Shown piece after piece: positions 5,254-36,127 of a DNA stretch of 39,045 nt. Numbering within the stretch: the first letter of the stretch is position 1; each line of letters opens with the position of its first letter. The stretch comes from Alphaproteobacteria bacterium (lineage in GTDB: Bacteria > Pseudomonadota > Alphaproteobacteria > Rs-D84), in the NCBI GenBank assembly GCA_031549365.1, contig JAVBPX010000013.1, positions 1 through 39,045 of the forward strand, written 5' to 3'. The position numbers were made by a program, and so were the translations under genes. Under the pieces are notes generated by a model. It did no database searches. It worked only from the letters and a program-made list of their open reading frames with translations, and was not told the origin of the DNA.

Positions 5254-5339
5254 GGCGTTTGTTTTTTAAGATCGGTTTTATTTGTTGGGATTTTTAATTT
5301 GGGCTTTACATTTTTATGCTTTTTGTGGATGATGTTTGT

Positions 5340-6414: not shown

Positions 6415-7161
6415 GTGGTTCGATTTTCCAAGATTAATTTAGATAAAGATTTGTTTTTTAGGTTGGAAAAACAGATTTTTGATATGGAATTGGACTGTGA
6501 TTGCGATACGTTTGGTGTGGTTAAAAGGCGTTTAATTAATCGCGAGGTTTTGACGCCAGATCAATTTTTTTATCAGGCGGTCTATGTCGTTTTGGCCGGG
6601 GGATTTTCCCAAAAAACGGCCAAGCGTAAGCATGCCGAGATTATGGAATGTTTTGGGATTGAAAATGGTTTGTCAGACGTGGGTGAAAAAAATTGCAATA
6701 ATTGCCACGGGGTCGTGACCCCTCGCAATGACAAAACGAGAAACGTTGCGGGGCCGGGGTTTGATGATTTAATTAAAATTTTTGGAAATGTGAACAAGGT
6801 TAATGCCATATTAAAATTATGGAATGGTCGTGAAAAATTTTGTTCAGAATATTATAAATTAATGGATATTAAAGCACGTTTGGATTATTTGTCGGGATTG
6901 CCGCACATTGGTAAAATTACTGCGAATCATTTGGCCAGAAATTTGGGTGAAAATGTCGTTAAATACGATATTTGGATTCAGCGTTTGGGTGTTCGAGTTT
7001 TTGGAGGCGCCGATGATATGAATTTGGTTGGTTTTCCATTGAATGATAAAATTAAAAAATATGCGGATATGGTTTTTGAAAAATTGGAAAAAGATACCAA
7101 GTATCCGAAGGGATATATTGATTTGATATTGTGGAAGGCCAGCCAGGAAAAGATCATTTGA
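6415..7161 (+). CDS. HhH-superfamily DNA glycosylase/lyase-like protein
   Basis: HhH motif LSGLPHIGKITANHL followed by KYDIW Asp; terminal IDLILW; contains an in-frame REP-like hairpin. Confidence 0.7.
   Translation: MVRFSKINLDKDLFFRLEKQIFDMELDCDCDTFGVVKRRLINREVLTPDQFFYQAVYVVLAGGFSQKTAKRKHAEIMECFGIENGLSDVGEKNCNNCHGVVTPRNDKTRNVAGPGFDDLIKIFGNVNKVNAILKLWNGREKFCSEYYKLMDIKARLDYLSGLPHIGKITANHLARNLGENVVKYDIWIQRLGVRVFGGADDMNLVGFPLNDKIKKYADMVFEKLEKDTKYPKGYIDLILWKASQEKII
6692..6733 (+). repeat. REP-like hairpin (ATTGC..GCAATGAC family) inside a CDS
   Basis: ATTGCCACGGGGTCGTGACCCCTCGCAATGACA matches intergenic copies at 22705, 26609 and 37321. Confidence 0.85.
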
Positions 7162-8718: not shown

Positions 8719-9417
8719 TTAGTGGATGAGGCAGGCGAGTGCGGCGCCAGCGTTTTTAATTAAAAACCAAGTCATGCGGTGGTCTGTCATATAAATTGCG
8801 ATCATGAACAAAGACATGCTGCCGATTACGATTTGAGTGTTTAAGATTTTACCCTTCATGCAATAGACAACAATGTTATAGATTAAAAACAGTACATAGC
8901 CGTCAACAAGTGCCGAGATAATCCATAAAGAGGTGCAATTAAATGCCAATGTGTTTAAGCACAAGATTGCTGGGTACATGAAAAATACGGAACCCAATCC
9001 CTTGACAGCGATTTCAAAGTCGCGTTCGCCACCGGTGATTTCAGAAATTAGCATAATTAATCCAGATAGCAAGAACAGTACAACAACTGCCAAGATTGGT
9101 GTTACGATGAATTTTGCAAAAACGGTTGCCATGGTGATTGCATGCCCGCCCAATAATTGCAACAACAATACCAATGCGCCGCCGATTAGGCCGTAGATGA
9201 ATGCTTTGATCATTGGAGCTTCGAAACTGCCGTCTGCGACAATCGATGAGAAATAGCGTTTTGGATTTACCAAGATCATGGCAATGTGTTGAAGCCAGCT
9301 GGTTATGCCGTGCTTTTTAATTGTTTTGCCCGTTTTTTTTGCGGTGGTTTGAATTTTTTCGATTTCAGATTTCAAAGCTGATTGCTTTTTTTCGACTTGT
9401 TTTGTTTGTTTTGCCAT
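8719..9417 (-). CDS. Yip1-family membrane protein
   Basis: ILVNPKRYFSSI motif followed by about 5-6 TM segments; start MAKQ at 9417 after GGAG. Confidence 0.8.
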   Translation of the reverse strand: MAKQTKQVEKKQSALKSEIEKIQTTAKKTGKTIKKHGITSWLQHIAMILVNPKRYFSSIVADGSFEAPMIKAFIYGLIGGALVLLLQLLGGHAITMATVFAKFIVTPILAVVVLFLLSGLIMLISEITGGERDFEIAVKGLGSVFFMYPAILCLNTLAFNCTSLWIISALVDGYVLFLIYNIVVYCMKGKILNTQIVIGSMSLFMIAIYMTDHRMTWFLIKNAGAALACLIH

Positions 9418-9493
9418 GTTAATCTCCATCTTGTCAAGTGCATTATAGACAATGGTGCGTGGAAAATCCATCGAAAAATTAGGATTCTGTGAT

Positions 9494-10861
9494 ATGTTCA
9501 AAATTGCAATTTTAGGCAGGCCAAATGTTGGAAAATCAACATTATTTAATCAATTGACTCGTCGTCGTGATGCAATTGTTCACGATCGTCCGGGTGTTAC
9601 GAGAGATATTATTATTGGACAGATTGATTGGGGTGGCGTTGAAGCCGAGATTTTAGATACTGCCGGGATTGATTTAAAGATGTCTGGGGATGCGGTTGAA
9701 AAGGCCATGGCGGATCAATCCCTGTATGCTTTGAAGTTGGCGGATGCCGTGTTATTCATTGTTGATGGGCGCCATGGAGTTCATCCGGATGATGTTGCTT
9801 TGGCCAGGATGATTCAAAAATCGGGCAAGCCTGTGTTGTTGGTTATGAATAAAGCTGAATCCAAAAAGGGGACTGAATTTCAATATGATTTTTATAGATT
9901 GGGATTGGGGGATCCGAAACCATTATCTGCCGAACATCGGACGGGATTAGAGCATATTTTTGATTGGTTAAAAACAATGACTTGTAAAAAAAACGAAGAT
10001 GGTATTGATTGCGAAGAGGGTGCGGATAAACCACAACCTTCACGCCCAGTTCGTTTATCAATTGTTGGCCAGCCGAATGTTGGAAAATCAACTTTGATTA
10101 ACAGTATTGTTGGAGAAAATCGTGTGTTGGTTCATGATATGCCTGGGATTACACGTGATACTGTTTTGGTGCCATTTGTGTGGGCCGGTCGTAAGTTGGT
10201 TTTAACAGATACAGCAGGAGTCAGAAAAAAAGCAAAAGTTACGGATGATGTTGAAACAATTTCATCAATCAAAGCATTAAAAGCAATCGAGCAATCGGAT
10301 GTTATTGTTTTGGTTTTAGATGCAACATTAGGATTGGAAAAACAGGATTTAACCCTGGCCGCACGTGTTGCCGAAGAAGGAAGAATTTTAATAGTCGCAT
10401 TAAATAAATGGGATTTAATTAGTTCCGAAGAGCAGGAAGATTTATTATTCAAGTTAAAGAATGAATTTTCAAATTCATTCCATCAGATTATTAAACCAAC
10501 GATTTTGCCAATCAGTGCTATGAAAGGTACGGGTGTCAAAAGTTTAATGAAACGGGTATTCACATTATGGGATTTAACAGATAAACATCATGCGACCAGT
10601 GCGATTAATAGGGCTGTTGAAAAATTAATGGCTGCGACGCCTCCGCCTTTGTCGAAAATGAAAAAGCCGATGAAGGTTAAATTTGCGGCGCAAACAGAAC
10701 AGCGGCCAACCACAGTTACATTAAACGTAAGTGGCGCCACAGAGTTCCCAGAATCATACGAACGTTATTTGCGTAATGGATTGGCTAAAAAATTTGGCTG
10801 GGAGAATTTGGTGGTGCGTATACGCTATAAAAAATCGGAAAATCCGTACGAAAATAATTGA
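9494..10861 (+). CDS. der: Ribosome biogenesis GTPase Der (EngA)
   Basis: Two G domains (GRPNVGKS/DTAG/NKAE; GQPNVGKS/DTAG/NKWD) and a C-terminal SYERYL..L domain; start ATG 9494. Confidence 0.98.
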   Translation: MFKIAILGRPNVGKSTLFNQLTRRRDAIVHDRPGVTRDIIIGQIDWGGVEAEILDTAGIDLKMSGDAVEKAMADQSLYALKLADAVLFIVDGRHGVHPDDVALARMIQKSGKPVLLVMNKAESKKGTEFQYDFYRLGLGDPKPLSAEHRTGLEHIFDWLKTMTCKKNEDGIDCEEGADKPQPSRPVRLSIVGQPNVGKSTLINSIVGENRVLVHDMPGITRDTVLVPFVWAGRKLVLTDTAGVRKKAKVTDDVETISSIKALKAIEQSDVIVLVLDATLGLEKQDLTLAARVAEEGRILIVALNKWDLISSEEQEDLLFKLKNEFSNSFHQIIKPTILPISAMKGTGVKSLMKRVFTLWDLTDKHHATSAINRAVEKLMAATPPPLSKMKKPMKVKFAAQTEQRPTTVTLNVSGATEFPESYERYLRNGLAKKFGWENLVVRIRYKKSENPYENN

Positions 10862-15711: not shown

Positions 15712-17527
15712 TTGGCATAACCTTTAGAGTTTCGCGCATAATTGATGCAGCTACGTGGCCTGCGATGGATCCGGAATTTCCGTGTTCCAATAAAACAGAT
15801 ATGGCATAGCGTGGATTTTCAGTTGGCGCATATCCAACAAACATAGCGTGGTTGCGCAAGTGGTATGGAAGGGATGCGGATGAGCGGACGCCTGTGGCGC
15901 GTTCCTCGGTCGTGATTCTGCGAACCTGGGAGGTGCCGGTTTTGCCGCCCATTTTTTGACCATTCACATTAATCGCTGATAGTGATGCGGTCCCGTCCGT
16001 AGTGGTTACGCGGTTAAGACCGTGCATTACTGCGTCGATATGTTTTTGCGAAATTCCAATTGATGGAAATTCGTTTCTGGATGTTGAATCCATCATTAAT
16101 GTTGGCATTATTTCGCGGCCGGATACGGCGCGGGCGGTCATTATAGCCAGTTGTAAAGGGGTTGATAGGACGAAACCCTGACCAATTCCGGTTAAAATTG
16201 TATCTGCGTGCCTCCAGGTTTGGCCGACGTTTTTTTCCTTCCACCGTTTGTCCGGCAATAAACCAGGGTGTTCGCCAAGTAAATCTTCCAATAATGTTTG
16301 CCCCATACCCAAGCGTTTGGCCATGTTGCGGATTGCGTCAATTCCAACGCGGAGAGCAACTTGGTAAAAATAGACGTCGCAAGAATGCGCAAGTGCGTCG
16401 GATAGGTTTTGCCAACCGTGGCCATCCTTTTCCCAGCAATGGTATCGGTGTGTTCCATAGTTCCAGCCGCCGTCGCAGTATATTTTTTCGGTCGGAGTTA
16501 TGGCGCCAGTTTCAAGGGCCGCCAAGGCAACCACGATTTTGAAGGTGGAACCGGGAGGGTAGGCCCCCTCGATACATTTGTTCAAAAATGGTTTATATGG
16601 GTTGTTTTGTAATTCAGTCAAATGCGATTCTGAATTTTCGCCCTGAAATAATTGTGGATTAAATGATGGCGTCGAAGTCATGGCAAGTATTCCGCCAGTT
16701 TTAATATCAATTACAACAGATGCGCCGGATGTATGTGGTTCAAGTGCGCGTTCCATTTGTTTTTGAATAGCAGAATTTATGGTCAGTTTTAAGTCTGTGC
16801 CGCGTATGGCGGGCATGGCGTCTGAGGAGAAATCCTCGATCACGCGGCCAAGGGCGTCAACCATGAAAACATTGCGGCCAGCGGTGCCGCGCAATAACGG
16901 ATCATAGCGACGTTCGATGCCGTATTTCCCAGTTTTAAAATACGGAGCCTCCATCATGGAATCAAATCTTTTTTTTATATCAGATTCCGATACGTCCCCA
17001 ACGTATCCAATTGCGTGTGATGCAAAGTTGCCGTTTGGATACATTCGTGTAAAACCCTGTTCAACGTGCAGGCCGGGTAATTGTTCGCGAAGACTTTGCA
17101 GTTCGGCCATTTGTTCCCAGGTTAAATTTTCGCGGACGAGAGTTGGAACAAATGAACGTTGTTTTTCGATTTTTTCGTTTATGCGTTTTAATTCTCGAGC
17201 GTTTAATTTTAATTCGCGAGTTAAGCGGTCGATTACGTTCGAAACATTGCCGTTTTGGTCGGTTGTTTCCTTGGGTATAATATAAACGCGGTATGTGGGT
17301 TTATTTGTTACAATAATTTCATTATTCATATCCAACATTTTGCCGCGTTCTGGTAATATTGGTTGGATGCGTAAATAATTATTATCAGATAGTTTTTTAT
17401 AATGTTTATGACTGAACACTTGTAATTGAACCATCCGCATGACCAAGATTGATGTCATGATAAGTCCGCCAGATATTAACAGTACAGAACGACGATCAAA
17501 AATAGCGGATAGTTCGCGATCAATCAT
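15704..17527 (-). CDS. mrdA: Penicillin-binding protein 2
   Basis: STFK, SCD and KTG transpeptidase motifs; PERG dimerisation domain; between mreD and rodA. Confidence 0.97.
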   Translation of the reverse strand: MIDRELSAIFDRRSVLLISGGLIMTSILVMRMVQLQVFSHKHYKKLSDNNYLRIQPILPERGKMLDMNNEIIVTNKPTYRVYIIPKETTDQNGNVSNVIDRLTRELKLNARELKRINEKIEKQRSFVPTLVRENLTWEQMAELQSLREQLPGLHVEQGFTRMYPNGNFASHAIGYVGDVSESDIKKRFDSMMEAPYFKTGKYGIERRYDPLLRGTAGRNVFMVDALGRVIEDFSSDAMPAIRGTDLKLTINSAIQKQMERALEPHTSGASVVIDIKTGGILAMTSTPSFNPQLFQGENSESHLTELQNNPYKPFLNKCIEGAYPPGSTFKIVVALAALETGAITPTEKIYCDGGWNYGTHRYHCWEKDGHGWQNLSDALAHSCDVYFYQVALRVGIDAIRNMAKRLGMGQTLLEDLLGEHPGLLPDKRWKEKNVGQTWRHADTILTGIGQGFVLSTPLQLAIMTARAVSGREIMPTLMMDSTSRNEFPSIGISQKHIDAVMHGLNRVTTTDGTASLSAINVNGQKMGGKTGTSQVRRITTEERATGVRSSASLPYHLRNHAMFVGYAPTENPRYAISVLLEHGNSGSIAGHVAASIMRETLKVMPND

Positions 17528-18012
17528 TTACGCCCCCAAGACATCAATTTGTTAAATATCAGCGATAGCGGGTAATATAAACAGCATGTTAAAATTATTG
17601 TCCAGATCAACATAGTTAATGAAATCAATGCACCAGATGCAATTGATGAAATGGCGCCCATTATAATTAATGCGCACGACATAATGCATGAAAAGAAAAA
17701 CCAAGAATTCATTTTTTGTTGGGTTAAATTAAATATGTTTTGGATTCCCAAAACGCCATAAATTAACAGAAATAAAAATGTGTGCATTAGTAGAGTATCG
17801 TTTGTGTAGTCCAATAACAAAAACATTAAAAAGGCAATTGAAAATGGTAATTTATTTGGATAATAAATAATGAAAAAGAATGCGGGAATTACCATTAATA
17901 TGCCGCCTGGGTTCCAGATTGGGTGCGACAAATTCCAAAATATTAAAAGCAACGCGGTTGGTAAAATCGCATGGAATGCATTTGTGAACCAGGTTGGTGT
18001 TTTTAATTTCAT
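17524..18012 (-). CDS. mreD: MreD-like membrane protein
   Basis: 162 aa, about 5 TM; position between mreC and mrdA; divergent sequence. Confidence 0.7.
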   Translation of the reverse strand: MKLKTPTWFTNAFHAILPTALLLIFWNLSHPIWNPGGILMVIPAFFFIIYYPNKLPFSIAFLMFLLLDYTNDTLLMHTFLFLLIYGVLGIQNIFNLTQQKMNSWFFFSCIMSCALIIMGAISSIASGALISLTMLIWTIILTCCLYYPLSLIFNKLMSWGRK

Positions 18013-22070: not shown

Positions 22071-22412
22071 TTAGCGGGTGGATTCAGTTTGGGATTTGAT
22101 GGCAGGCTTTTTCGAATCGGCATCAAAAAATTTGCTAGAGATTAGAAGTGCGGCGATTCCAATTATAAATACAATGCAAACTGTGTCGGAAATGATTTCG
22201 TATTTTTTTTCGACGCGTTTAAGGTTGTGTTTTTTTTCGGAATAGGGTTCGGATTTTTGTCCCGATTTTTTTGTTACGACAGTACTGTTTTCATTGCGGA
22301 TAAATGCGCGTTCTGCGTGGGCCGATTGGCGCGCGGCCAAGTGTTGATCATGTTTAAGAAGTGCCACGGTTGAATCTTTTAGGTTTTTTGGTAATTCAGC
22401 AAATGTTTTCAT
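22071..22412 (-). CDS. Hypothetical protein with a single C-proximal TM segment
   Basis: ATG start MKTFAEL at 22412 (the track start lies in a repeat); TM VCIVFIIGIAALLI; no family recognised. Confidence 0.65.
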   Translation of the reverse strand: MKTFAELPKNLKDSTVALLKHDQHLAARQSAHAERAFIRNENSTVVTKKSGQKSEPYSEKKHNLKRVEKKYEIISDTVCIVFIIGIAALLISSKFFDADSKKPAIKSQTESTR

Positions 22413-22448
22413 GGTTGTTCGATTTGGTTTTTGATTGTGGTTCTGTTG

Positions 22449-22746
22449 GAAAATTTTTGTCACGGAAAAATCATTTATGATTTTTCAAAATTTTCATAGG
22501 TTGGGATTAAGGTTGGCATGGATTTAATTTATTTTTGTTTTTGGTTATCTGGTTTTATTGTGATTGTTCGTAAAATTGCTGTTGTAATTGTTTTTATTAC
22601 TGGATCCTCTCGGCTGTGCCTCAGGATGACCAAGGATTAAGGTTTGTTTTGATTTTATTTAAGTTATGAAATGTTTTCATGGTTGTTCGATTTGGTTTTG
22701 TTTAATTGCAATGATTGCCACGGAGCCTTGGCTCATCGCAATGACA
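22449..22746 (+). repeat. Mosaic repeat cluster
   Basis: TGTCACG hairpin 22449-22495, TGGATCC..CAGGATGAC 22601-22630, 31-bp duplication 22669-22699, ATTGC..GCAATGACA 22705-22746. Confidence 0.8.
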
Positions 22747-22757
22747 AATAAAAAACA

Positions 22758-23042
22758 TTAGGGGAGTTTTTTCGATATTTGGCGGAGGCGTTGGAGTAAT
22801 TTTTCCAGGCCCGCTTCGATATCACCATTTGGAGTGGATGGAGCGCGTGATTGCAATTCGTCGGCCAGTACGATACAGACAGTTGCAAGCAGGGTTTTTT
22901 CGTCCAATGGGCCGATGGCGTTTAAAATCGCCCGAGCCTTGGCATCCACGATTTTTGAGAGTTGGTGGAGGCGTTCTTCTTGGCCGTCTTCGCAGCCGAG
23001 GGCGTATTTTTGGTTTACTATGTCGAGGGTGACGATACTCAT
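22758..23042 (-). CDS. zapA: Cell division protein ZapA
   Basis: VTLDIVNQKYALGCEDGQEERL...LLATVCIVLADEL. Confidence 0.92.
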   Translation of the reverse strand: MSIVTLDIVNQKYALGCEDGQEERLHQLSKIVDAKARAILNAIGPLDEKTLLATVCIVLADELQSRAPSTPNGDIEAGLEKLLQRLRQISKKLP

Positions 23043-23260
23043 TTTACTGCCTTTAATTTTTTTAAGATTGCAACGGATTCATCGATATAGTCAATTGCGC
23101 GGTCGCGGGCGGATTTTAGGGCCTCGCACTGTTGTGTTAGGATGGCAACTTCTAAATCCGTCTGTTTTTGCATGCCGTTTTGGGTGTCGCGTAGGCGCAA
23201 AATCCCGTTTTCAATGTTGTCAAGTTCGTTATAAATTTGGTCAAGTATTGTTGTGTTCAT
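23039..23260 (-). CDS. Short coiled-coil protein upstream of zapA (ZapB/ZauP-like)
   Basis: 73 aa heptad pattern; ATGA overlap with zapA. Confidence 0.65.
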   Translation of the reverse strand: MNTTILDQIYNELDNIENGILRLRDTQNGMQKQTDLEVAILTQQCEALKSARDRAIDYIDESVAILKKLKAVK

Positions 23261-23361
23261 TTGTAAATAGTCCTTGAAATTTCATCGTTATATGTATAGA
23301 GTTTAATGGATTTCAAAATAATGTCAAATGGATATATTTTGAGGTTGGTGTTTAGTTCTGA

Positions 23362-24236: not shown

Positions 24237-24917
24237 ATGGCAAACGATAAAAAAGTTAAAAAAAGCATTGCTGAACACCAAGAAGATGCGTTGTATCGTG
24301 AAATTTGGGAAGAAGTTCATGCCCAAAAAACGTATGATTTTGTTAAAAAACATGCGAAATTATTAATTGGTTTGGCGGCATTCATTTTATTGTTGGCCAT
24401 TGGAAATCAATTGTTAAATCATTATAAAACTGAAAATGCGAAAAAAGATGCGTTGGCTTTTGAATCTGCAATGGTTACTGTGGCCGATCGTCAGGCTGAT
24501 TCCGCGCAGATTATGTTGAAAAAATTGGGGAATAAATCATCGTCTGGGATGGGTGATATTGCAATGTATCAATCCGCCATGTTGTATTTGGAAAAAGGGC
24601 AAAAAGATGCCGCAATGGATCAGTTGCAAAAATTAGCAAAACATGGAAATACACGTGATTTTACGCATTTGGCGACAATTCGTTTGGCGTTATTAAAAGC
24701 TGATTCGATGAGCGGTTCCGCGCTAGAAAAATTTTTATCGCCGACGCTGTCGCGCAGATCGCCTTTTTATTATACATCAATGATGTTGGTTTCGGCAAAG
24801 TATGTGTCAGAAGATAACAATGTTAAGGCCGAAGCTTGGTTGAAAAAAATTGTTAATGATGACGATGCCCCGAAAATTATTTCTGCGCATGCGGAAACAA
24901 TGTTGGCCGGAATGTAA
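24237..24917 (+). CDS. YfgM-like TPR membrane-anchored protein
   Basis: REIWEEV N-terminus, one TM, TPR-like helices; directly upstream of bamB. Confidence 0.8.
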   Translation: MANDKKVKKSIAEHQEDALYREIWEEVHAQKTYDFVKKHAKLLIGLAAFILLLAIGNQLLNHYKTENAKKDALAFESAMVTVADRQADSAQIMLKKLGNKSSSGMGDIAMYQSAMLYLEKGQKDAAMDQLQKLAKHGNTRDFTHLATIRLALLKADSMSGSALEKFLSPTLSRRSPFYYTSMMLVSAKYVSEDNNVKAEAWLKKIVNDDDAPKIISAHAETMLAGM

Positions 24918-26230: not shown

Positions 26231-26352
26231 AATCAATGAAAACGGCCATCTAGGACGTTTTCTTGTTCAAAATCCTCGGTTTCGTATGTTAATATACGCG
26301 CCATCGGATTTTGAAAAACAAAACTCCTATATGACTCGTTTTGATTGATTTT
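26228..26352 (+). repeat. Long palindromic element, copy H (subtype of B; starts on the bamB TAA)
   Basis: AAAATCAA-TGA-AAACG...CGTTT-TGA-TTGATTTT; inner TTCAAAATCC/GGATTTTGAA; apical CGTATG..TATACGCG. Confidence 0.82.
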
Positions 26353-26476
26353 CGGATGGTGTGAGAACAGCGACTGGAAACAAGTTTTTAAATTTTTCGA
26401 CCCTTATGTACCACTATGTATACCGCGGGTCAAAAAATAAAAGAACCCACCCAATCATCGCATTTTGAAATGATCG
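26353..26476 (+). repeat. Long palindromic element, copy I (tandem, degenerate outer stem)
   Basis: GCGACTGGAAACAAG, apical GACCCTTATGTACCACTATGTATACCGCGGGTC, CAATCATCGCATTTTGA. Confidence 0.85.
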
Positions 26477-26570
26477 AATGTGTAGTAGAGTTTTTGAAAA
26501 CACAATGCAACCATGCAATCAAAGATTGCTGTTGCTGATGAGGACCCAGAAAACAATTATTAATCGTTTT

Positions 26571-26803
26571 CTGAATCCGTCCCGAGGGATGACAATAATT
26601 TTCTTAATATTGCAATGATTGCCACGGAGCTATAGATCCTCGCAATGACATAGACAATAAAAAGTTGCTGGCGCAACCATTTTTATTAATGGATATCCGC
26701 CTGTGCGGGTATGACCATTATTCGTTATCGCCAAGTTTTATTACTGGATCCTTTCGGCTATGCTTCCACCTTTTTTAAAACTGTGGTGGACAGGCAGGAT
26801 GAC
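26571..26803 (+). repeat. Cluster of four REP-like hairpins ending ATGAC
   Basis: 26571-26594, 26609-26650, 26690-26715 and 26745-26803. Confidence 0.8.
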
Positions 26804-26865
26804 CGATGATTGAGGTTTGTTGCTAGCCCACTTAGGGGTAAGGGAATTTTAATAAGTGCAATTTT

Positions 26866-28167
26866 TTATTTATCTGATTTTTTCTTGATAGCAGAGGTGT
26901 ATAGTTTTTTTGCCGTTTCATTTAAATCTTTCCAGCCGGATTTTATATTTTTATCGATTAGTTTTGCGTATTCGCGGTTTATTGCTCCGCCTAATTTTTC
27001 GCTGAACTTTTCGGCGTTGCGAATCATGTATAATGTTAACAGGCCGCACAGAAATACCGTCATAAATGATGTGTCGTTCATTGATGGTGTAATGTTGCGC
27101 AAATCGCCCGTTGTGTTAAATGCACCCTGCATAAGCGCATAGGACATTCCAGCGATTACGGACAGGATGCAGAAGTAAAATAATGCTTTGACCAGGGTTT
27201 CAATTAATTTAGATATGTCGCCAGTTGCAAACATGCCGGTAACTGTTTGGAATACCGTTTTAACAATTGGATTTTTAACGGATGTGTCGCCGCCGCCAAA
27301 GCAGGTTTTGATGGCCACGAATGGTAGGAAGAAAAGGGTTAACATTAAGTCTGCGATTACAGATAGGACCGAAATTGCGAAATTAAATGCGTTGATGATA
27401 AATACAATCACAAACATTATGCCAGTGATTACCATTAATCCAGAGGTGCCAAAGCCGTATTTCATCCAATAAAATCCAGTTGATATGCATTGATAGAAAA
27501 ATGTTGAAATTCGGGCAGGCATGCACAGCATATTGGCCGTAGTTTCGTTTGATAAAAATGGTTCGACCGTTGTTAATGGGTCCGATGCAACGTATGCGCG
27601 GATGGCGTCACAAGTATGCAGAGTATCAACGCCCACAGTTGTTGTTAGGATTAAATCAGATATATATGTGCCGAGCGATATAATTGGGCCCGCAAAAAAC
27701 ATGAAAATTTGGGCCGGATTAGATTGAAGTATTGCGATCCAGATTACGACGATTATGGATTTTTTTACTATGCTTTCTGCGAATTTTTTTGTGTCGGATC
27801 CAGATTCTATTAATGCGTAAGATTCAAGTGCAATCCACCAGGCAAGCAGTGTTATCAAAAACCAAGTAATGATATTCATAAATATTGGGTACAGCATTTG
27901 TGCAACATAGGTCATCGAATCAATGGTTAATTTTGCAATTTTTGTTTCGATTGGAATTGCGCCTGGTGTCATGAAATCCGTGTTCGGCACATCGTTTTGT
28001 AATTTTGTTACGACCAATCCACGTATCGCGTTGCCCAGGGGCAGGTTCGTTGCGTTATAATTAATTGGTTGTTCAACAGGCGGGATTGGTGATGTATTAA
28101 TTGGATCATCTGCGAACACAATGGTTGGCATCAAAAACATAACAAAAATCAGTATCAATTTTTTCAT
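26866..28167 (-). CDS. VirB6/TrbL-like polytopic membrane protein, paralog 5
   Basis: Signal peptide, GPIISLG, MLC motif, hydrophobic core ..LFFLPFVAI..F; basic amphipathic tail. Confidence 0.6.
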   Translation of the reverse strand: MKKLILIFVMFLMPTIVFADDPINTSPIPPVEQPINYNATNLPLGNAIRGLVVTKLQNDVPNTDFMTPGAIPIETKIAKLTIDSMTYVAQMLYPIFMNIITWFLITLLAWWIALESYALIESGSDTKKFAESIVKKSIIVVIWIAILQSNPAQIFMFFAGPIISLGTYISDLILTTTVGVDTLHTCDAIRAYVASDPLTTVEPFLSNETTANMLCMPARISTFFYQCISTGFYWMKYGFGTSGLMVITGIMFVIVFIINAFNFAISVLSVIADLMLTLFFLPFVAIKTCFGGGDTSVKNPIVKTVFQTVTGMFATGDISKLIETLVKALFYFCILSVIAGMSYALMQGAFNTTGDLRNITPSMNDTSFMTVFLCGLLTLYMIRNAEKFSEKLGGAINREYAKLIDKNIKSGWKDLNETAKKLYTSAIKKKSDK

Positions 28168-29648
28168 TATTTGCCGCCCGATGGTTTTGGCTTGATTAAA
28201 ATGCCTGGTAATTTTTGGATGTTTTTAAATCCAGTTTTAAACAACGATTCAACGTTTTGACCGAATTTAAAGAAATCCATATTGCCGCCAGCCAAGAATG
28301 TTTTATCAATTTTTTCGCGCAACAATGCGTGATAGAAAATAAATAAACCAATCATCATCCAGAAAAATTCAAATGAATTATTCAAGAAATCAAAGTATTC
28401 AGGAGTTTGGGACTTTTTCGTCATGAAGCATTGTTTGAATTTTGTTTTATCCGGAGTGCCGTCCGAGGTGCGGGCATATTGTTCACAGTCAGAGAATATT
28501 TTTGCGATTTGTGGGCGAGCCATGAGTTCGGATGCATCAGTTGCCGATAAATTTAGACCGATTTCAGGTGGAAATAGTGCGGTGTATCCATCAACTGGGC
28601 CCGGAAAGAATTTGTCCGATGCAAATAAAACCATGACATATATTATTGTGATTTTTAATGTTACGCCCACCATTTTTACCATCGATTTGGCAAGCGTGCC
28701 AATGGCGTTTGGGCCTACCCCTTCGAACAGTTTATATTTAAATGCGTAGCTGGCGATTATTAATGGCAAGAATACAACCAGTATTGCGAGTGAGAATATT
28801 ATGTTCATTATATCAAATACGATTTCAAAACCGATAAACAAAAACATTAGCACCAAGGCAATGCCCATTATCCAGTGCAGCATGTGATTATCAAACCAAC
28901 CGAAATTCATTAGGGCAAAGCCGCCAGATGCGCCCGCCAACATGATCGTATTAACATTTCCAATTGTGCATAAAAATGGGTCCATGATTGATTTTGAAAC
29001 CAGTGTTGCGTTACTGTCCACACCGCGGGCCGCCCAATCTGGTAAATTTAATTCAGATGGATTTGAGTGTGATGTGCAATATTTTCCATCTATGTTTGTA
29101 ACCGACATAGCAACAGAATTACCAACTGATAAAATGGGTGTTACGGTTAATGATGAAATTGTTGTCATCATGGATGATCCAGAAAATCCAAGTACTCCCA
29201 AAAAACCACCGACTAGTAATAGACGGATTCCCTGGGATTGAATGGGCTCCCAGTATTTTGCAAAATCGATTTTACGTTCGCCCGCGTCCAGTTTGGTGGT
29301 TTGGTCTGCGGAGTCTTTTAATGTTTTATATGTGTGAAACAGGATGAATATTGCCATGCCAAATACCAGTAAAATCCATGTGTGGCGAATCAATGTGTCG
29401 TATATTGCAAATGCGGCACCTGTTATTAAATATAACAATGTTTCGATATAGGGGCACAGCAGGCAAGATGTTGAATTTACCGAGCAGGTTCCATTTTCGC
29501 AGGCCCCGATTGCGTTCATAAATTGATCCAGGGATACATAAGTCAATGAAGATCCATTTATTGAATCGTACAAATACCAAAAGCCTAGGCCAATGACGCC
29601 GATCCATAGCAATAAACGAATTAATAAAATGATCCAGTTTGCTTTCAT
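28167..29648 (-). CDS. VirB6/TrbL-like polytopic membrane protein, paralog 4
   Basis: CLLC, TPILSVG, FLCTI, ..VVFLPLIIASYAF core. Confidence 0.6.
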   Translation of the reverse strand: MKANWIILLIRLLLWIGVIGLGFWYLYDSINGSSLTYVSLDQFMNAIGACENGTCSVNSTSCLLCPYIETLLYLITGAAFAIYDTLIRHTWILLVFGMAIFILFHTYKTLKDSADQTTKLDAGERKIDFAKYWEPIQSQGIRLLLVGGFLGVLGFSGSSMMTTISSLTVTPILSVGNSVAMSVTNIDGKYCTSHSNPSELNLPDWAARGVDSNATLVSKSIMDPFLCTIGNVNTIMLAGASGGFALMNFGWFDNHMLHWIMGIALVLMFLFIGFEIVFDIMNIIFSLAILVVFLPLIIASYAFKYKLFEGVGPNAIGTLAKSMVKMVGVTLKITIIYVMVLFASDKFFPGPVDGYTALFPPEIGLNLSATDASELMARPQIAKIFSDCEQYARTSDGTPDKTKFKQCFMTKKSQTPEYFDFLNNSFEFFWMMIGLFIFYHALLREKIDKTFLAGGNMDFFKFGQNVESLFKTGFKNIQKLPGILIKPKPSGGK

Positions 29649-30889
29649 TGTTTTTTATCCTCTTTCTTTTTGAAGGATTTGATGAATTTCTTTGTCGTAT
29701 TCGTTATGTCGCCTGCCAATTTTTCAAGATTTGTATTTACGTTATCGCCGTGAGTGGTTGAAGGCTTGACACTGAATGCGTCCGTTATCATCGATTGGAC
29801 GCGAGGGATTTCGCGCATGATAAATTCAATTACAAATGCCAATGTTATAATGCCCAGTAGAGCGTTTGTTGCAAGAGGTGATCGCAAGGCCAATTCTGCC
29901 GATGAATAATCGCCGGACAAAATATATTGCATCATTGGGTTGCCAGCAGGGTTTGATGATCCGGACAAAAAGTATGCCATGATTGTCATTGATACGATGT
30001 ATGTAATCATTACGGCGAACAAGGTTGTGATTGCGTTTATTACGTCGCTGAAAAAGCTGGCGGTTGTAGATCCCAAACCTTTGACAACGCCCGATGATTC
30101 CGAATTTTGAAACACATATCCAACAAGCATTAATGGAAAGAAAAATGCAAACATCGTAAGAGCAACAATTACGTCCACAAAGTGCCAGCAGAATTTTATA
30201 AACAGTTTAAAGAAAAACCAGATGATGATTAATCCTAGTAAAAATATTAACGTGTGTTCCAATAATCCAGGTAAGTTTATAACGTCTGACCAGGTGAAGG
30301 CAGATGATATCGCCGCAAATCCAAACATGATAAATGATTGAAAAACGGTTGTTGATGTTTTCATTAAGCGGATTATCCCATCGCGTAATTCGGGATTGTA
30401 GAAATGTTCGGAATTTTTATCGATTGGCATTGGTTCGTATTTTACACGGGCGTCCACAAATTCAGGGGTTGTTTGAAGCACTGCGTCCGCATACATTATT
30501 GTTACATTGGTTATAGGTTCGAAGGTTGCGCGGGTTACCAATTTTGGAAAGGCGACGCCCATGCCAAGTAGTGCCGAAATTACAGCGGCGTTAATTAATG
30601 TTGGTAATAATTTTTTTTGGTATTCTCCGACATCTTTGACGGTTTTCATGTTTTTGATAATTATGTACAAAACATAAAATGCGAGGCCGAATGCCATGAT
30701 GATTAATCCCAAATACGCCATTTTATCATAAAGGGCAGCGGCTGTTTTAGATACGATTTGGAATAGCAAATCAAATACGGGACAACCCCAACATTGGATT
30801 GTTTTTTGTGTCGCGGATTCAAAAATACCAGCAGCATAAGTTGGTGCCGACAACAATATCATGAAAAGGTAGAGGATCAATTTTTTCAT
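29645..30889 (-). CDS. VirB6/TrbL-like polytopic membrane protein, paralog 3
   Basis: Signal peptide, CWGC, EPITNV, ..AFFFPLMLVGYVF core. Confidence 0.6.
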   Translation of the reverse strand: MKKLILYLFMILLSAPTYAAGIFESATQKTIQCWGCPVFDLLFQIVSKTAAALYDKMAYLGLIIMAFGLAFYVLYIIIKNMKTVKDVGEYQKKLLPTLINAAVISALLGMGVAFPKLVTRATFEPITNVTIMYADAVLQTTPEFVDARVKYEPMPIDKNSEHFYNPELRDGIIRLMKTSTTVFQSFIMFGFAAISSAFTWSDVINLPGLLEHTLIFLLGLIIIWFFFKLFIKFCWHFVDVIVALTMFAFFFPLMLVGYVFQNSESSGVVKGLGSTTASFFSDVINAITTLFAVMITYIVSMTIMAYFLSGSSNPAGNPMMQYILSGDYSSAELALRSPLATNALLGIITLAFVIEFIMREIPRVQSMITDAFSVKPSTTHGDNVNTNLEKLAGDITNTTKKFIKSFKKKEDKKQ

Positions 30890-32007
30890 TTTGCCCCCCC
30901 TGGTTTTTTCATGAAGTTTTTTGCCAGGCCAGCAACGTTTTTGCCAAATGTTGTTATGGTGCCGGTTGCTGATTTATAAATGCTTTGATCAGATTCGCCG
31001 CCGTATGAGGCAATTTTCTTTTGAGTTAAGTCAAAGATTTCATACATCACCATGAATGTTAATATGGCAGACAGCCAGGTAAATTCATGTGCCCCGAATC
31101 CAGATACCAAATCGTTTGATGTTATTTGGCGGAGCCTTTCCATTTCTGTGGGGCCGAATAGTGCACGAACCAATTGGATGTTTATGATAATTACAAACGC
31201 AGACATAATCATCGTTAATATCAGTTTTCGGAGGGCTGAAATTATATCCGAAAATACGGGTAAAAAGTTTGCCCAATCGTCGTTGCCAGGCTTTATAACA
31301 TAAACAACAATTTTAAATGGGTATAAAATTAGTGCCATTCCAAAATGAAATATTGCTGTGATAAACATTAAAGACATAAATAAATTGGATGAGAAAAATG
31401 CCAGCACCAGGGCGAGGCCGGTTAAGACCTGGAGAAATTTTAAAGTTATGGCGCCATTGATTGCAAGCTCAACGCCGGATTTTATGATTTCATTGTTTTT
31501 TTTGGAAATTTCCTGTAGAGGCGCGGTTAGATAATAGCGCGAGGATTCTGAATAGTAATCTGTGTCTGAATGCGCAGTTGCCGGAGTATAACGCTGTAAT
31601 GTGAAGTCGTGTTCATTGCCAAGGATGTGTGATGTATATATTGCCCCAAATTGTAAAAATGGATCAATTCCGTATTGGATGATGTATTTTGGGTTTAATG
31701 GTAAAAGCAATGATATTGCGATTACCCCGCGCATGATTGGTTTTAAAATGTTTTCCGCCAGTTTAAATGGGTCTGGTTTGTCAGATTGGATTATAAAATC
31801 CGAGTTTAATTTTAATGCTGATAAAAATTGTTTTGGGATAAATTGTTTTACGATGTATACAGTCAGGCTGAACAGTAAAAAGATATAGATTAGTGTTGGA
31901 ATAATTGGACGAAAATATTGATATGTTCCGATTGCCACGTGTGTAAACGCGTCCAATACCATTGGGACAAGAGGTGCCAGTGAAAGATCAATTAACGGTG
32001 TGGACAT
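30886..32007 (-). CDS. VirB6/TrbL-like polytopic membrane protein, paralog 2
   Basis: DPFLQFG, ..LILYPFKIVVYV core; no CxxC. Confidence 0.55.
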   Translation of the reverse strand: MSTPLIDLSLAPLVPMVLDAFTHVAIGTYQYFRPIIPTLIYIFLLFSLTVYIVKQFIPKQFLSALKLNSDFIIQSDKPDPFKLAENILKPIMRGVIAISLLLPLNPKYIIQYGIDPFLQFGAIYTSHILGNEHDFTLQRYTPATAHSDTDYYSESSRYYLTAPLQEISKKNNEIIKSGVELAINGAITLKFLQVLTGLALVLAFFSSNLFMSLMFITAIFHFGMALILYPFKIVVYVIKPGNDDWANFLPVFSDIISALRKLILTMIMSAFVIIINIQLVRALFGPTEMERLRQITSNDLVSGFGAHEFTWLSAILTFMVMYEIFDLTQKKIASYGGESDQSIYKSATGTITTFGKNVAGLAKNFMKKPGGAK

Positions 32008-33326
32008 TATTCTTTTTTATCCTGTGGCTTTTTGCGGTAGAGTTTAATCATGTTTTTAATATTATCGTTGGCGGTTTTCATGTTTTGTTTTGCTTTTTCA
32101 TAATATTCTTTTGGTATGCCAACGGTTTTAAATAATTCGTTTACCAGTGTTGGAATTGATGTCATAAACATGGTTAGAAAAATTCCGATGAAAATCATCA
32201 TCATGATTGAATTGTTTTCAAGTGCGACACCGTTCATGAAAATTTCAGGGTCATTATTTTGAAATGCGGTTGCAATTATGTTGGCGCGAGGATTATTTGG
32301 AGAAAATAGTGCGTTCAAGAAAAATAGAGAAAAAGTTGTGAATATCCCAACAACTGCGATGCCGGCGGTGTTTTTAATTAATTTGTCGATGATTGTTTGG
32401 ATGTCCGATTCTTTGACTGGGAAAACGGGGTTCTTTTGGAACAGCCAGCCAAGAAGCAGCAAGGGCAATAGTAAAAAATCCATGGCAAGTTCAACAATGA
32501 TTTTTAAAAAATATAATGGCACAGGGAATGTTGCAAAAACGTACAAAAGCACGATTAATAATCCAATCAGGAAAAATCCAATGTTTGGAAATACGGGGAC
32601 GCCCATAATTTGATACATGTGTGTTGAATTAAATGCCGAGTTTAGCAAGGTCCAGCCAACGGTCATGCCTGTCCCTGTTAGACGATGGAACATTGCAATT
32701 TGACATACCAGATTGTGGCGGAGTGATGGAGAAAAACTTTCCGTTTTGGCGTTTGGAGATGGGTCGTTTGCAGCAGTTGTTATTAAACAAGTTTCAAATG
32801 CGTTCGCGTGTTCGGAAGGTGAAAATTGCCGATCCATAATCCGGCCGTATGAAAGGCCGATTGAAAATATTGGTTCGATAAATGTTCCGGTTATTATTCG
32901 AGGTAGTGGAATATACAGGAGGGCGATGACAAATGTTGCGCGAATAAAATGGGTGCCGTATTGGCCGGCAAGTGTCCAGGGCGAATCTGGGACGCTGAAT
33001 TTTGCGAGGTAGTGCGATAAAATTCCCCATGCAATCCAGATCGCTGTTATTAAAACAATGGATAAGAATATTATATCTGCAAGCGATGAGTAGGTCGCTG
33101 AAATTATATCGGATAGCCCAGATATAATGCCGCCAAACAAATTGCACGACCAACAGGATGAGAAAAAATCAAATGCGGATAACATATCGACAGGTGTGTT
33201 TGAACGATAGATTGAATACCCTGCGATTCCAACGGCCCCAACAATCAAGCCCACGACAACAGGAGCGACCGCCATTGCCGAGAATGGAATAAATGTCAGT
33301 AATAATGCGGACCAGATGCGTTTCAT
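32007..33326 (-). CDS. VirB6/TrbL-like polytopic membrane protein, paralog 1
   Basis: Signal peptide, CWSC, EPIFSIG, LVCQI, ..FLLLPLLLLGWLF core. Confidence 0.6.
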   Translation of the reverse strand: MKRIWSALLLTFIPFSAMAVAPVVVGLIVGAVGIAGYSIYRSNTPVDMLSAFDFFSSCWSCNLFGGIISGLSDIISATYSSLADIIFLSIVLITAIWIAWGILSHYLAKFSVPDSPWTLAGQYGTHFIRATFVIALLYIPLPRIITGTFIEPIFSIGLSYGRIMDRQFSPSEHANAFETCLITTAANDPSPNAKTESFSPSLRHNLVCQIAMFHRLTGTGMTVGWTLLNSAFNSTHMYQIMGVPVFPNIGFFLIGLLIVLLYVFATFPVPLYFLKIIVELAMDFLLLPLLLLGWLFQKNPVFPVKESDIQTIIDKLIKNTAGIAVVGIFTTFSLFFLNALFSPNNPRANIIATAFQNNDPEIFMNGVALENNSIMMMIFIGIFLTMFMTSIPTLVNELFKTVGIPKEYYEKAKQNMKTANDNIKNMIKLYRKKPQDKKE

Positions 33327-33673
33327 TTTTTCGGTTTGGGTTTAGATCCCTTGCGCGAATGTGTCGTAGGGATGACAGCGGTGGTTTTATTTTTTGTTGG
33401 CTTTTTGTATAAATCGGATTTTTTATAGATAAACCAAGGACAGCCAATAATTAAAAATATCGACGTGCCGAATAAAATCCAGCGGCCGCCCATTGCGCAA
33501 ATTGTAAGAGTTGCGATGATAAATAAAATCAGGGCGATGGATTCCAGCGTGTTTTCACGTGTGAAGTTTAATAGGCGTGGTTTTTTGTTTGATTGCAAAG
33601 ATTGCAACGGAGTCGTGACCCCCAGCAATGAGGATTCATTATTTTTCTTGGTTTTGTCGATGTTTTTTGGCAT
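33323..33673 (-). CDS. Small two-TM basic protein leading the paralog operon
   Basis: ATGA overlap with paralog 1; start MPKNID at 33673 after GGGGG; two hydrophobic segments. Confidence 0.65.
   Translation of the reverse strand: MPKNIDKTKKNNESSLLGVTTPLQSLQSNKKPRLLNFTRENTLESIALILFIIATLTICAMGGRWILFGTSIFLIIGCPWFIYKKSDLYKKPTKNKTTAVIPTTHSRKGSKPKPKK
33592..33632 (+). repeat. Degenerate REP-like hairpin inside a CDS (antisense to the gene)
   Basis: 34 of 41 nt identical to 6692-6732. Confidence 0.8.
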
Positions 33674-33844
33674 TTTTCCCCCATTCATTCGCATTATAGA
33701 AGTTTCGTACATTTTGGGCAATTGTTTTTTTATAAAATTTCGACGTGAATACTTGAAAAATTGCCGTTTTTGTGTTATATTGTGTTATCAAGGTTGGTTG
33801 GTTATTTTGGGCCAGCGTTGATAGACCAATCAGGAGGCCGTGAG

Positions 33845-36127
33845 TTGGCAAAGTATGATGCTTTTTTAGAGAATTATTTTCAGCAGATGCACGCAGATCA
33901 GGGTGGAACATCTGGGCAGTTTTCCGTATTATCAAAGGGGCATAAAAAAAAGGCAAATGGCAAAGATTTAGAAAAATTTTATAATGCTGCGTTTTTAGGC
34001 CGGATTGTTGAAGATATTAAGCGTTTTTCAAAATTACAAGATTTTCCGGCAGGAACATTGAACCCACAGCAATTGGCAGCAAAGCTAGATGCGGAATGGT
34101 TGAATAATGAGGATAAGTATATTGAACAATTTATTGTTCCGATGGCCGAAGTTTCTGGGATATTTTCTGATTTAAAAGCAACAGATCCAAGAGATGGGTC
34201 GAAAGAAAAAACAAAAATTGAAAATGCCAGGGATGCTATTAATGGATTAAGGGATTCTTTTGTCGCGAGTTGGCCTGTGCCAACGCCGGATCAGGCGGCC
34301 ATAATTGCAAATTTGGATACAATAGTTGCAGGATTGAACGGATCATTGGCAAGTCCCACTTTGTCAAGCGTTCCGCCGGTTTTAAATGCAACAGATTTGG
34401 CCGATATACAGCAGGAATTTAATAATTTTTTAGTATTAGGTAAAGATAAAACAAAACCGTTTTTTGATCGAATTAAAAATATGTATTCGGTCGCGGGTAT
34501 TGCGGATGATGACGATAGAGTTTTATATATTAAAGAAATTTTAGGAAATTTTGGAAAAATTGAAAGCCCGCTGCCAACGGGAGGTGAATTAAAAAATTAT
34601 TTGGATGGCTTGAAGGCTGTTGGAAAAAATAAAGGTGTTACAGATCAAATTTTAAATGCAATTGATATTGATCAAAATGGTTTAGGTCCCGATGGTTTAG
34701 AGGAGTTATATAAGGATTTTTGGGCTGCCTTTGAATCAATGCGTTCGGATAAGGATTTGCCAAGTAAAGAAAAAGAGAAAGCATTTTTTGATAAGTACAA
34801 AGGATTGTTTCCAGAAAAAACCGTTGATGACGAGACAAAAAATGGGCAAGCTGATATTTTGACTTATTTGAGAGATCCTGATATTAAAAGATATTTTCAG
34901 TCTGATTGGAATTGGAAAAATTCATATGAAAAAGTTATTTCAGCATTGGAAAAAGGAAAAATAAATTCTGTTTCAGAAGAACTTAAGGAGTTATTGGATG
35001 TCGCGGATAGTATGGGTTTCGCAACTCCGTTCCCATTTGCGTCGTTCCCAGGCTTAACCGCACCAAATATAGAAAGGTTTATTGCAGAAAAATTGGATGT
35101 TAAAGATAATCCGGACCCATTAAAAATTGATAAATTTAAAAAAGAATATTCGGCAGTATTTAAGGATATTTATGATACGAAAGATGTTGCGGAATATTTA
35201 AATGGTATAGATTCAACACGTGGTATTGTTAGAAATATGAATTTTGCAAAAAGCAAAATTAAGTGGGATGAGGTTCCTACGAAAATTGAAGATTACGAAG
35301 GTAAGTGGAAAAAACGTAAAAAGAAAATAAATGAAAAATTAAATGAAACAATATTAAAGCCTTTTTCAAGACATAAAAATCATATTTATAAATCAAAATC
35401 TGCGGAAAGTATAGTTAATGCGTTATGGAAAAAAGGCATTAATCCGAGTAAGGGATTGGGAGCCTGGTTAGAGAAAAAAGACGATATAAAGAAATCTGTT
35501 GATTCTGCGCATCATGGGCATTTTGATAAGTTAGTAAAGTTTTTAGAAACACTAAAAAGCGATGCAAAAGATTTATTTGAAAATGGTTTATCCGATCCAA
35601 ATAAAATGAATGCGATTGCTGCCGAAGTTATTAATCAGGCTGTTGATGGAAAATTAAAAAAAGATGAAGCACAGGCAATTTTGGAATCAATTGCAGTTAT
35701 GAGATATAGTTTGTTTACAAGTGATAGGCGTGAAGAATTTAGGAAGGGTTTAAAGGATTCAAATATTATTGCGAATTTGCCATTTTTGCAGGGACATGAG
35801 GGTACCAAAATTTTCGGAAAAGTTGTTGATAGAGGATTGAAATTATCATTATCCATGATGTTTGAGGCCGGAGTTTTTGGCAAAAACGTTATTAACAGAA
35901 TTAAATCCAAGAAATTAAAAGAAGGCAAAAAGAGAGTTGATGCCAAGACAAAAGAATTGGATAAATTGCAAAAAACAAACCCAACAAAGGCAGAAGAGGG
36001 TAAAAAATTGCAAAATGAATTATGGGCATTTTGGAAAAATGCTATGTCTTATGAAACTTATGATTTTAATGTGTTACAAAAGCATTCTGAGATTCAAAAG
36101 GCGTTTTATGCGAGCAATGGATTATGA
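33845..36127 (+). CDS. Large Lys-rich helical hypothetical protein (760 aa)
   Basis: Long open frame; TTG 33845 lies 7 nt after AGGAGG; no signal peptide, TM or recognised domain. Confidence 0.85.
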   Translation: MAKYDAFLENYFQQMHADQGGTSGQFSVLSKGHKKKANGKDLEKFYNAAFLGRIVEDIKRFSKLQDFPAGTLNPQQLAAKLDAEWLNNEDKYIEQFIVPMAEVSGIFSDLKATDPRDGSKEKTKIENARDAINGLRDSFVASWPVPTPDQAAIIANLDTIVAGLNGSLASPTLSSVPPVLNATDLADIQQEFNNFLVLGKDKTKPFFDRIKNMYSVAGIADDDDRVLYIKEILGNFGKIESPLPTGGELKNYLDGLKAVGKNKGVTDQILNAIDIDQNGLGPDGLEELYKDFWAAFESMRSDKDLPSKEKEKAFFDKYKGLFPEKTVDDETKNGQADILTYLRDPDIKRYFQSDWNWKNSYEKVISALEKGKINSVSEELKELLDVADSMGFATPFPFASFPGLTAPNIERFIAEKLDVKDNPDPLKIDKFKKEYSAVFKDIYDTKDVAEYLNGIDSTRGIVRNMNFAKSKIKWDEVPTKIEDYEGKWKKRKKKINEKLNETILKPFSRHKNHIYKSKSAESIVNALWKKGINPSKGLGAWLEKKDDIKKSVDSAHHGHFDKLVKFLETLKSDAKDLFENGLSDPNKMNAIAAEVINQAVDGKLKKDEAQAILESIAVMRYSLFTSDRREEFRKGLKDSNIIANLPFLQGHEGTKIFGKVVDRGLKLSLSMMFEAGVFGKNVINRIKSKKLKEGKKRVDAKTKELDKLQKTNPTKAEEGKKLQNELWAFWKNAMSYETYDFNVLQKHSEIQKAFYASNGL

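Follow-up and report, generated by a model that had tools for sequence, protein, structure and literature searches.

The closest described counterparts of the genes reported here are the VirB6-type proteins of type IV secretion systems (T4SSs). In the R388 system, VirB6 forms the base of the stalk as a pentamer, whose subunits each have seven long helices of which five are hydrophobic, and a VirB5 pentamer sits on top of it (PMC9259494); VirB6 homologs are generally predicted to be homo-pentamers (PMC12857230). Tandem and very divergent VirB6 paralogs are present in Rickettsia, with five, and in Ehrlichia and Wolbachia, with four, and their integration into the machine is stated to be unknown in the relevant passages of two reports (PMC8035066, 10.1101/2025.08.29.673095), the second of which calls the multiplication of VirB6 in Rickettsiales a mystery (10.1101/2025.08.29.673095). 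Here, we describe an array of five paralogous genes in a 39,045-nucleotide stretch of DNA from an alphaproteobacterium of the Rs-D84 lineage (assembly GCA_031549365.1, contig JAVBPX010000013.1, positions 1 to 39,045), which we refer to as the window. Its minus strand carries six overlapping open reading frames (ORFs) head to tail at 26866-33721, a small one (g0) and five large ones (gA to gE, coding for 373-493 amino acids, aa), and the junctions in the order g0-gA-gB-gC-gD-gE are ATGA, TAATG, ATGA, ATGA, and TAATG. The five large proteins are very probably remote members of the VirB6/TrbL superfamily.

The array resembles the rvhB6 arrays of Rickettsiales in that an alphaproteobacterium with a reduced genome carries four to five very divergent VirB6-type paralogs side by side on its chromosome, with no link to a conjugative element and with other T4SS genes, in the present case probably, elsewhere in the genome (PMC8035066, 10.1101/2025.08.29.673095). 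Unlike the rickettsial genes, which directly follow virB3-virB4, those in the window are preceded by g0 and then by a divergently transcribed gene for a 788-aa orphan protein. The window proteins are also compact and free of extensions (373-493 aa, in contrast to 600-1400 aa for the rickettsial proteins), they escape the Pfam TrbL model, and invariant CxxC and Cys-pair motifs set them apart; the lineage of their host, which dwells in the gut, is Rs-D84 or a neighbor of it and not Rickettsiales proper. Canonical VirB6, in turn, is the product of one gene inside a virB operon, has about 300-340 aa, and forms a homo-pentamer topped by VirB5, whereas the array consists of five different genes with about 100-150 extra residues each, and no VirB5 was found in the window or in 80 related loci. 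(A one-genome-per-species scan gave 303 loci; counts on relatives use 80 of these, L001-L080, with 10-kb flanks.) Sequence similarity to canonical VirB6 is detectable only through intermediates. The pentameric state reported for VirB6 (PMC9259494) is the same number as that of the paralogs here.

Paralogy, shared motifs, and cysteines

Judged from their sequences, gA to gE are true paralogs of one another. Their pairwise identity in blastp is 19-25%, with best E-values of 3e-10 to 1e-3 in eight pairs, 0.024 for gB-gC, and 0.93 for gB-gD; comparison of the family profiles by hhalign returns probabilities of 85-99% over 232-368 columns for nine of the ten pairs, with gB-gD alone not significant. 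Four residues, P152, G224, G255, and P288 in gA numbering, are invariant in all five window paralogs and identical in 55 of 55 sequences drawn from the five families in 11 genomes. The P152 column contains the EPIFSIG motif and its counterparts, and the P288 column contains LLLPL and its counterparts. Hydropathy and model helices point to six to seven hydrophobic helices, with a helical loop in the middle and a basic tail at the C-terminus. An initial annotation, made from the letters and their ORF translations, had described six genes joined by ATGA or TAATG overlaps, five of them coding for tandem paralogs that share a P-I/F motif, a Pro-kinked hydrophobic core, and Lys-rich tails. The junctions prove to be exactly as described, the paralogy and both motif columns are borne out by the comparisons above, and the tails are visible at the C-termini in the translations.

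The cysteine motifs listed in the same annotation are conserved well beyond the window. CxxC occurs in gA, gC, and gD (as CWSC, CWGC, and CLLC) and is invariant in the respective orthologs (81/81, 79/79, and 78/78). The extra Cys pair, which had been seen in three of the proteins, lies in the loop of window gA, gD, and gE and is kept in their orthologs (81/81, 77-78/78, and 75/75); it is additionally present in gB of 80 of the 81 family members. Both of these cysteines are absent from window gB, and their joint loss is as expected if the two form one disulfide. Window gB is ~35-55 residues shorter at its N-terminus than its orthologs, whose start is signal-like, and has the longest branch among the five paralogs. 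A catalytic thiol-redox CxxC as the function common to all five was considered and ruled out, because gB and gE have no CxxC.

Relationship to VirB6 and TrbL

The VirB6/TrbL assignment is founded on fold and on transitive profile evidence, there being no direct match of the window proteins to Pfam TrbL (PF04610, curated cut-off 25.9 bits). An AlphaFold2 model of gA (pLDDT 82.7, pTM 0.77), compared by Foldseek with 350,542 PDB chains, has TrwI/VirB6 of R388 at ranks 1-4 (E 7e-3 to 6e-2, probability 1.00, TM-score by target 0.48-0.60). The same protein takes ranks 1, 2, and 6 (E 8.5e-3 to 5.8e-2, TM-score by target 0.49-0.62) with a model of gB (pLDDT 72.5) that was built from an alignment separate from that of gA, the two proteins being ~20% identical. 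The models thus suggest, at modest scores, that gA and gB fold like the solved VirB6, with its seven long helices of which five are hydrophobic. A Foldseek comparison of the paralogs had been put forward in the initial annotation, which called them VirB6/TrbL-like, and TrwI (PDB 7o3v, 8rt9, 8rtd) is the top PDB match of both models. TrwI and the Ti-plasmid VirB6 share with the window proteins a polytopic, helical build in the inner membrane and a helical part in the periplasm.

The profile evidence runs through distant members of the family. A HMMER search with a five-family profile (A3) collected 1682 representatives at E<=1e-3, and Pfam was scanned with 44 of the 150 listed matches, picked as long and lower-ranked ones. 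TrbL is the sole recurring family among these 44; it matches 10 of them, always at profile positions about 74-94 to 183-212, and in two cases above the curated cut-off (35.7 and 27.8 bits versus 25.9). A profile made from nine of these ten TrbL-matching members (A7) aligns with A3 at a probability of 99.96% (E 5e-39, 348 columns) and with the Agrobacterium-type VirB6 profile at 87% (E 3.7e-6, 71 columns), and its best PDB sequence match is TrwI (E 2.7e-4). In the alignment of A7 with VirB6, a shared LPL...F motif falls on GPL..GY.F of VirB6, and through this bridge the Pro-kinked core picked out in the initial annotation, and with it the Pro-kinked helix, aligns with the invariant Gly-Pro-Leu of VirB6.

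Protein-language-model features give a similar picture. For gA, the nearest named clusters in a protein atlas are CtnDOT_TraJ (score 0.90, 192 of 256 features shared) and then TrbL; the nearest named clusters as a group score 0.90-0.88, and one of them carries both PF07863 and PF04610. This likeness is to the TraJ proteins of Bacteroides, which belong to conjugative elements of Bacteroidota, whereas the array here is chromosomal, alphaproteobacterial, and outside a mobile element. CtnDOT_TraJ (PF07863) matched nothing in any Pfam scan of the five families.

Several results pull away from VirB6 and have to be weighed with the foregoing. Even with the threshold relaxed to E<=1, neither Pfam TrbL nor a T4SS model of NCBIfam picks up any of the five window proteins, and Pfam TrbL matches none of 35 gA-family members; among 55 members of the five families it matches one, the gD ortholog of locus L001, at E 6e-4 and 20.1 bits, below the cut-off. 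Below threshold, EI24/CysZ matches one gC ortholog at E 7e-7, and 3 of the 55 members at E<=10, and FAM70 matches 6 of the 55; such scattered matches to unrelated membrane families equal or exceed TrbL in strength. When compared directly with the Agrobacterium VirB6 profile, A3, a further profile (A2), and each single family are not significant (probability <=1.6%), and no TrwI/VirB6 came from searches of PDB sequences with the A2 and A3 profiles. The Foldseek E-values fall short of 1e-3, and the TM-scores are 0.33-0.47 when normalized by query.

These results would be compatible with a lineage-specific polytopic family, either a transporter or a CxxC thiol-redox enzyme, whose helical fold merely looks like that of VirB6. 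The missing direct Pfam or NCBIfam match, the non-significant direct profile-profile comparison, Foldseek E-values of about 1e-2, and a CxxC at a helix N-terminus that is invariant in three families all fit such a family, and helical membrane proteins do yield spurious weak matches, the EI24 match at E 7e-7 being an example. We nevertheless think this explanation very improbable: four independent routes converge on VirB6/TrbL (the two models, TrbL in distant members, the A7 bridge, and the atlas features), the matches always fall on one and the same conserved pair of Pro-kinked helices, and gB and gE, lacking CxxC, could not share a function in CxxC catalysis.

The wider superfamily has long forms of 600-1300 aa among the A3 matches listed. 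In one of these, P0379 (1305 aa), an M23 peptidase domain at the N-terminus is followed in the same chain by the VirB6-like part, which joins a cell-wall hydrolase with a channel protein, and another long match, P0301, has a C-terminal GTPase domain, perhaps through a gene-calling fusion. Among proteins of 908-2590 aa, A3 retrieved no match, a negative of little weight.

Distribution and age of the array

Relatives of gA, at 35-47% identity, come solely from uncultured Alphaproteobacteria, in records labeled Rickettsiales bacterium, Alphaproteobacteria bacterium, or Candidatus Enterousia. They carry no Pfam domain, and every member named by its source is a "hypothetical protein." Among the matches seen, the relatives are confined to reduced-genome gut Alphaproteobacteria (order Rs-D84, Ca. 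Enterousia). Seven records (L003, L026, L028, L039, L041, L043, and L080) are titled "uncultured Muribaculaceae bacterium," a group of Bacteroidota, yet their paralogs nest in alphaproteobacterial clades, and the labels are probably wrong.

Exactly five superfamily members, one ortholog of each, are present in the window and in 74 of the 80 loci; the remaining six run into a contig end, so that the one-to-one set is complete in 74 of 74 uncut loci. A maximum-likelihood tree of 55 sequences, from the window and 10 of the 80 loci, resolves five clades, each with 100% bootstrap support; the window protein is basal in each of them, and the subtrees are similar. Because of these five fully supported clades and the basal window branches, we conclude that the duplications predate the split between the window organism and the sampled Rs-D84, and that all five copies have been kept since. 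On balance, we read gA to gE as ancient, co-inherited paralogs of a very divergent and compact branch of VirB6/TrbL. Their host would be an uncultured gut alphaproteobacterium with a reduced genome and a probable dependence on partner cells, branching outside the Rs-D84 genomes sampled. Members of Rs-D84 are described as gut bacteria with genomes of <1 Mb, in which most biosynthesis and the standard transporters are missing and which probably depend on partners; metabolites are proposed to reach them from partner cells by way of unknown membrane proteins (PMC12306168); the word "secretion" is absent from the main text of that report.

This strict retention bears on how the paralogs might be used. 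They could be T4SS parts serving as alternatives to one another, with each paralog forming its own homo-pentamer or with subsets swapped according to condition or substrate, an option that has been raised for the Rickettsia paralogs (PMC8035066) and that agrees with the general prediction of homo-pentamers for VirB6 homologs (PMC12857230). The gene order in relatives leaves room for it, since there gA is divergent from gB-gE, which allows separate control. In the window, by comparison, all five genes are translationally coupled in one operon, and one-to-one retention in every complete locus together with congruent subtrees is what obligate co-assembly predicts; redundant alternatives are harder to reconcile with genomes of <1 Mb. 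We regard such interchangeable use as rather unlikely.

The divergent arrangement of gA and gB-gE holds in 80 of 80 relatives, and the gap between them is roughly <=70 bases in most; in the window, gA is instead co-directional with gB, overlaps it, and is preceded by the orphan g0. A strongly conserved ORF for a soluble 172-aa protein follows gA in L010 and occupies the same position in 79 of the 80 loci (between loci, E 1e-51 to 1e-117). Pfam does not match it, and the window lacks a counterpart; the ORF may code for a partner of gA specific to this lineage, or be a conserved gene with no connection to gA. The gap is much larger in L002, from a termite-gut metagenome-assembled genome, where 3.7 kb (L002:6301-9974) lie between gB and gA and include a 100-aa helix-turn-helix (Xre-type) ORF upstream of gB and two family-less ORFs of 450 and 345 aa upstream of gA and in its direction.

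Genomic context and other T4SS components

Housekeeping genes flank the array, as first described: on one side are RNase PH, a YfgM-like gene, and BamB, and on the other RuvA, YebC, and RuvC. To these surroundings the initial annotation had added that the array is an orphan, with no ATPase, VirB8-10, pilin, or relaxase. The claim stands for the window and, as regards VirB-type genes, for the 80 loci, and it is weakened for the lineage as a whole. A phmmer search with Agrobacterium (pTiC58) VirB2, B3, B4, B5, B6, B8, B9, B10, B11, and VirD4 against 8401 ORFs from the window and the 80 loci matched VirD4 only, in 2 of the 80 loci (L064 and L071, both Enterousia). This gene codes for a VirD4/TraG-type coupling protein of 747 aa (PF02534, 178 bits) and lies between rpsO and an rRNA methyltransferase gene; the T4CP domain covers residues 441-694 only, and the first 440 residues have no family. 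Since a VirD4-type gene is present in these two loci, T4SS parts exist elsewhere in at least some genomes of the lineage, and a lone VirD4 among housekeeping genes resembles, by analogy, the scattered rvh systems of Rickettsiales.

We therefore weighed two readings of what the array belongs to. The one that we judge probable, with considerable room for doubt, is that the five proteins are the inner-membrane stalk base of a chromosomal, non-conjugative, rvh-like T4SS with scattered genes. It has to contend with two findings: the phmmer search returned no relative of VirB2-B5 or VirB8-B11 in the window or in 1.6 Mb of related loci with their 10-kb flanks, and neither in the window nor in the 80 relatives does the array adjoin virB3-virB4. 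The other reading is a stand-alone VirB6-derived complex, in which the T4SS was lost in genome reduction and the five-paralog ring was kept, for example as a conduit for metabolites from a partner cell or as a contact site. Such a complex would suit a window with no other T4SS gene in its 39 kb, the lack of any within 10 kb of the array in 78 of the 80 loci, and an array surrounded by housekeeping genes both here and in L010 (there uvrD, a PBP1a-type gene, mraY, ftsW, and murG), and it would suit Rs-D84 genomes of <1 Mb, without standard transporters, for which a supply of metabolites from partners is proposed (PMC12306168). It is harder to square with the VirD4-type coupling protein kept in at least two relatives, and scattered T4SS genes are normal in Rickettsiales (PMC8035066, 10.1101/2025.08.29.673095). 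The stand-alone complex seems to us unlikely on these grounds. We also know of no VirB6 relative that works without VirB4.

An origin by horizontal transfer or on a mobile element was rejected, since the GC content is that of the flanks and there is no tRNA, no Rfam match, and housekeeping genes on both sides; the array GC of 0.38-0.41 is no different from that of the remaining window. Six further ORFs of the window (5316-5897, 6415-7161, 8719-9501, 17524-18012, 22071-22463, and 22834-23277) gave nothing T4SS-like in Pfam at E<=1, and neither did 6415-7161, 8719-9501, and the 788-aa orphan in a comparison with PDB sequences. This orphan is Lys/Glu/Asp-rich and divergent from g0, and its translation may really begin at an internal ATG. 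Neither a Pfam or NCBIfam family nor a relative in the PDB was found for it, and the 80 loci hold no homolog. That the orphan is a secreted or surface protein is possible, and unsupported. The YfgM-like TPR protein encoded between RNase PH and BamB matches DUF2659 (E 5.9e-7, 29.8 bits versus a cut-off of 27.7), which we take to be a Rickettsia family; the match fits a Rickettsiales-like ancestry of the organism.

The first gene of the array, g0, codes for a two-helix hydrophobic hairpin (residues 56-100 by hydropathy) with Lys-rich ends, and its stop codon overlaps the gA start (ATGA). No Pfam or NCBIfam family matches it, the 80 related loci hold no homolog at E<=0.01, and its best protein-atlas score of 0.83 is under the lead threshold. 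The hairpin and the gene's position suggested a VirB2- or VirB3-like protein, for which no support was found. A promoter-like site at 33721-33693 favors the g0 start at ATG 33673, and a terminator-like two-way hairpin lies at 26663-26678, ~190 bases 3' of gE, but neither kind of site is above chance here: there are 32 promoter-like sites versus 29.5 in shuffles, and 10 terminator-like sites versus 8.7. Because such sites are no commoner than in shuffled sequence, we draw the operon limits from the gene overlaps alone. The 635 bases between BamB and the end of gE (26231-26865) contain no listed ORF of >=60 aa and have no Rfam match.

Table 1. Genes of the array and other ORFs discussed in the text (window positions, unless a related locus is named)
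Feature	Coordinates	Strand	Description
g0	33323..33721	-	Small orphan membrane protein; 132 aa from TTG 33721 or 116 aa from ATG 33673
gA	32007..33326	-	VirB6-like paralog, 439 aa; signal-like N-terminus, CWSC C58/C61, loop pair C180/C208; motif residues P152, G224, G255, P288 invariant; Lys-rich C-terminal helix
gB	30886..32007	-	VirB6-like paralog, 373 aa; most divergent of the five; no cysteine
gC	29645..30889	-	VirB6-like paralog, 414 aa; signal-like N-terminus, CWGC C33/C36, invariant transmembrane C234
gD	28167..29648	-	VirB6-like paralog, 493 aa; CLLC C62/C65, loop pair C191/C227; second invariant pair C388/C407 in an extra insert
gE	26866..28167	-	VirB6-like paralog, 433 aa; signal-like N-terminus, loop pair C186/C215; last gene of the array
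788-aa orphan	33761-36127	+	
YfgM-like gene	24237-24917	+	
172-aa ORF	L010:11350-11868	+	
VirD4-type gene	L071:17343-19586 and L064:17340-19583	-	Among mutS, truB, rpsO, and rRNA-modification genes (Enterousia loci)

Discussion

If the array belongs to a scattered rvh-like T4SS, the five proteins would build an inner-membrane platform or protochannel. The signal-like N-termini of gA, gC, and gE, the hydropathy, and the basic C-terminal tails, which obey the positive-inside pattern, would together put the central helical loop and the CxxC motifs on the periplasmic side. In that compartment, a disulfide may join the paired loop cysteines, and the disulfides of loop and CxxC may be structural or redox-sensitive. 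The kink at P288 would be the counterpart of the invariant Gly-Pro in canonical VirB6. Whereas canonical VirB6 uses five identical copies, the five different subunits here may assemble, one of each, into a pentameric ring, and this ring would take its substrates from VirD4/VirB4-type ATPases encoded elsewhere.

We speculate that the paralogs are the five positions of one obligate, asymmetric, hetero-pentameric VirB6 ring, with one gene per position, and put this forward as a tentative proposal that may well not hold. Duplication would, in that case, have converted a homo-oligomeric base with five-fold symmetry into an asymmetric ring. A hetero-oligomeric inner-membrane channel, possibly redox- or metal-linked, had also been suggested in the initial annotation. 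A ring with one of each is the simplest mechanistic reading, because there are always five paralogs, one of each, and they are translationally coupled. In such a ring, the CxxC-bearing subunits A, C, and D, together with disulfide-locked loops, would give the periplasmic dome a chemistry specific to each position. The idea of a one-of-each hetero-pentamer for VirB6 paralogs was not found in the portions of the literature that were searched (10.1101/2025.08.29.673095, PMC12857230).

Rs-D84 and Ca. Enterousia are widespread in animal and human guts, and contact with partner cells is left undescribed in the account of the group on which we draw (PMC12306168); the array is this lineage's first recognizable piece of a secretion or contact machine. 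The superfamily that it reveals is large, at the 1682 representatives collected here, and invisible to Pfam, and a family annotated as "hypothetical" gains an annotation. Short, extension-free, and strictly one-to-one paralogs also offer an easier system than the 600-1400-aa rickettsial proteins for asking whether paralogs occupy the five places in the VirB6 pentamer. If the hetero-pentamer is real, it would account in structural terms for the multiplication of VirB6 in Rickettsia-like bacteria, which so far lacks an explanation, and it could be the working core of a contact-dependent conduit in gut bacteria with sub-1-Mb genomes that live off partner cells.

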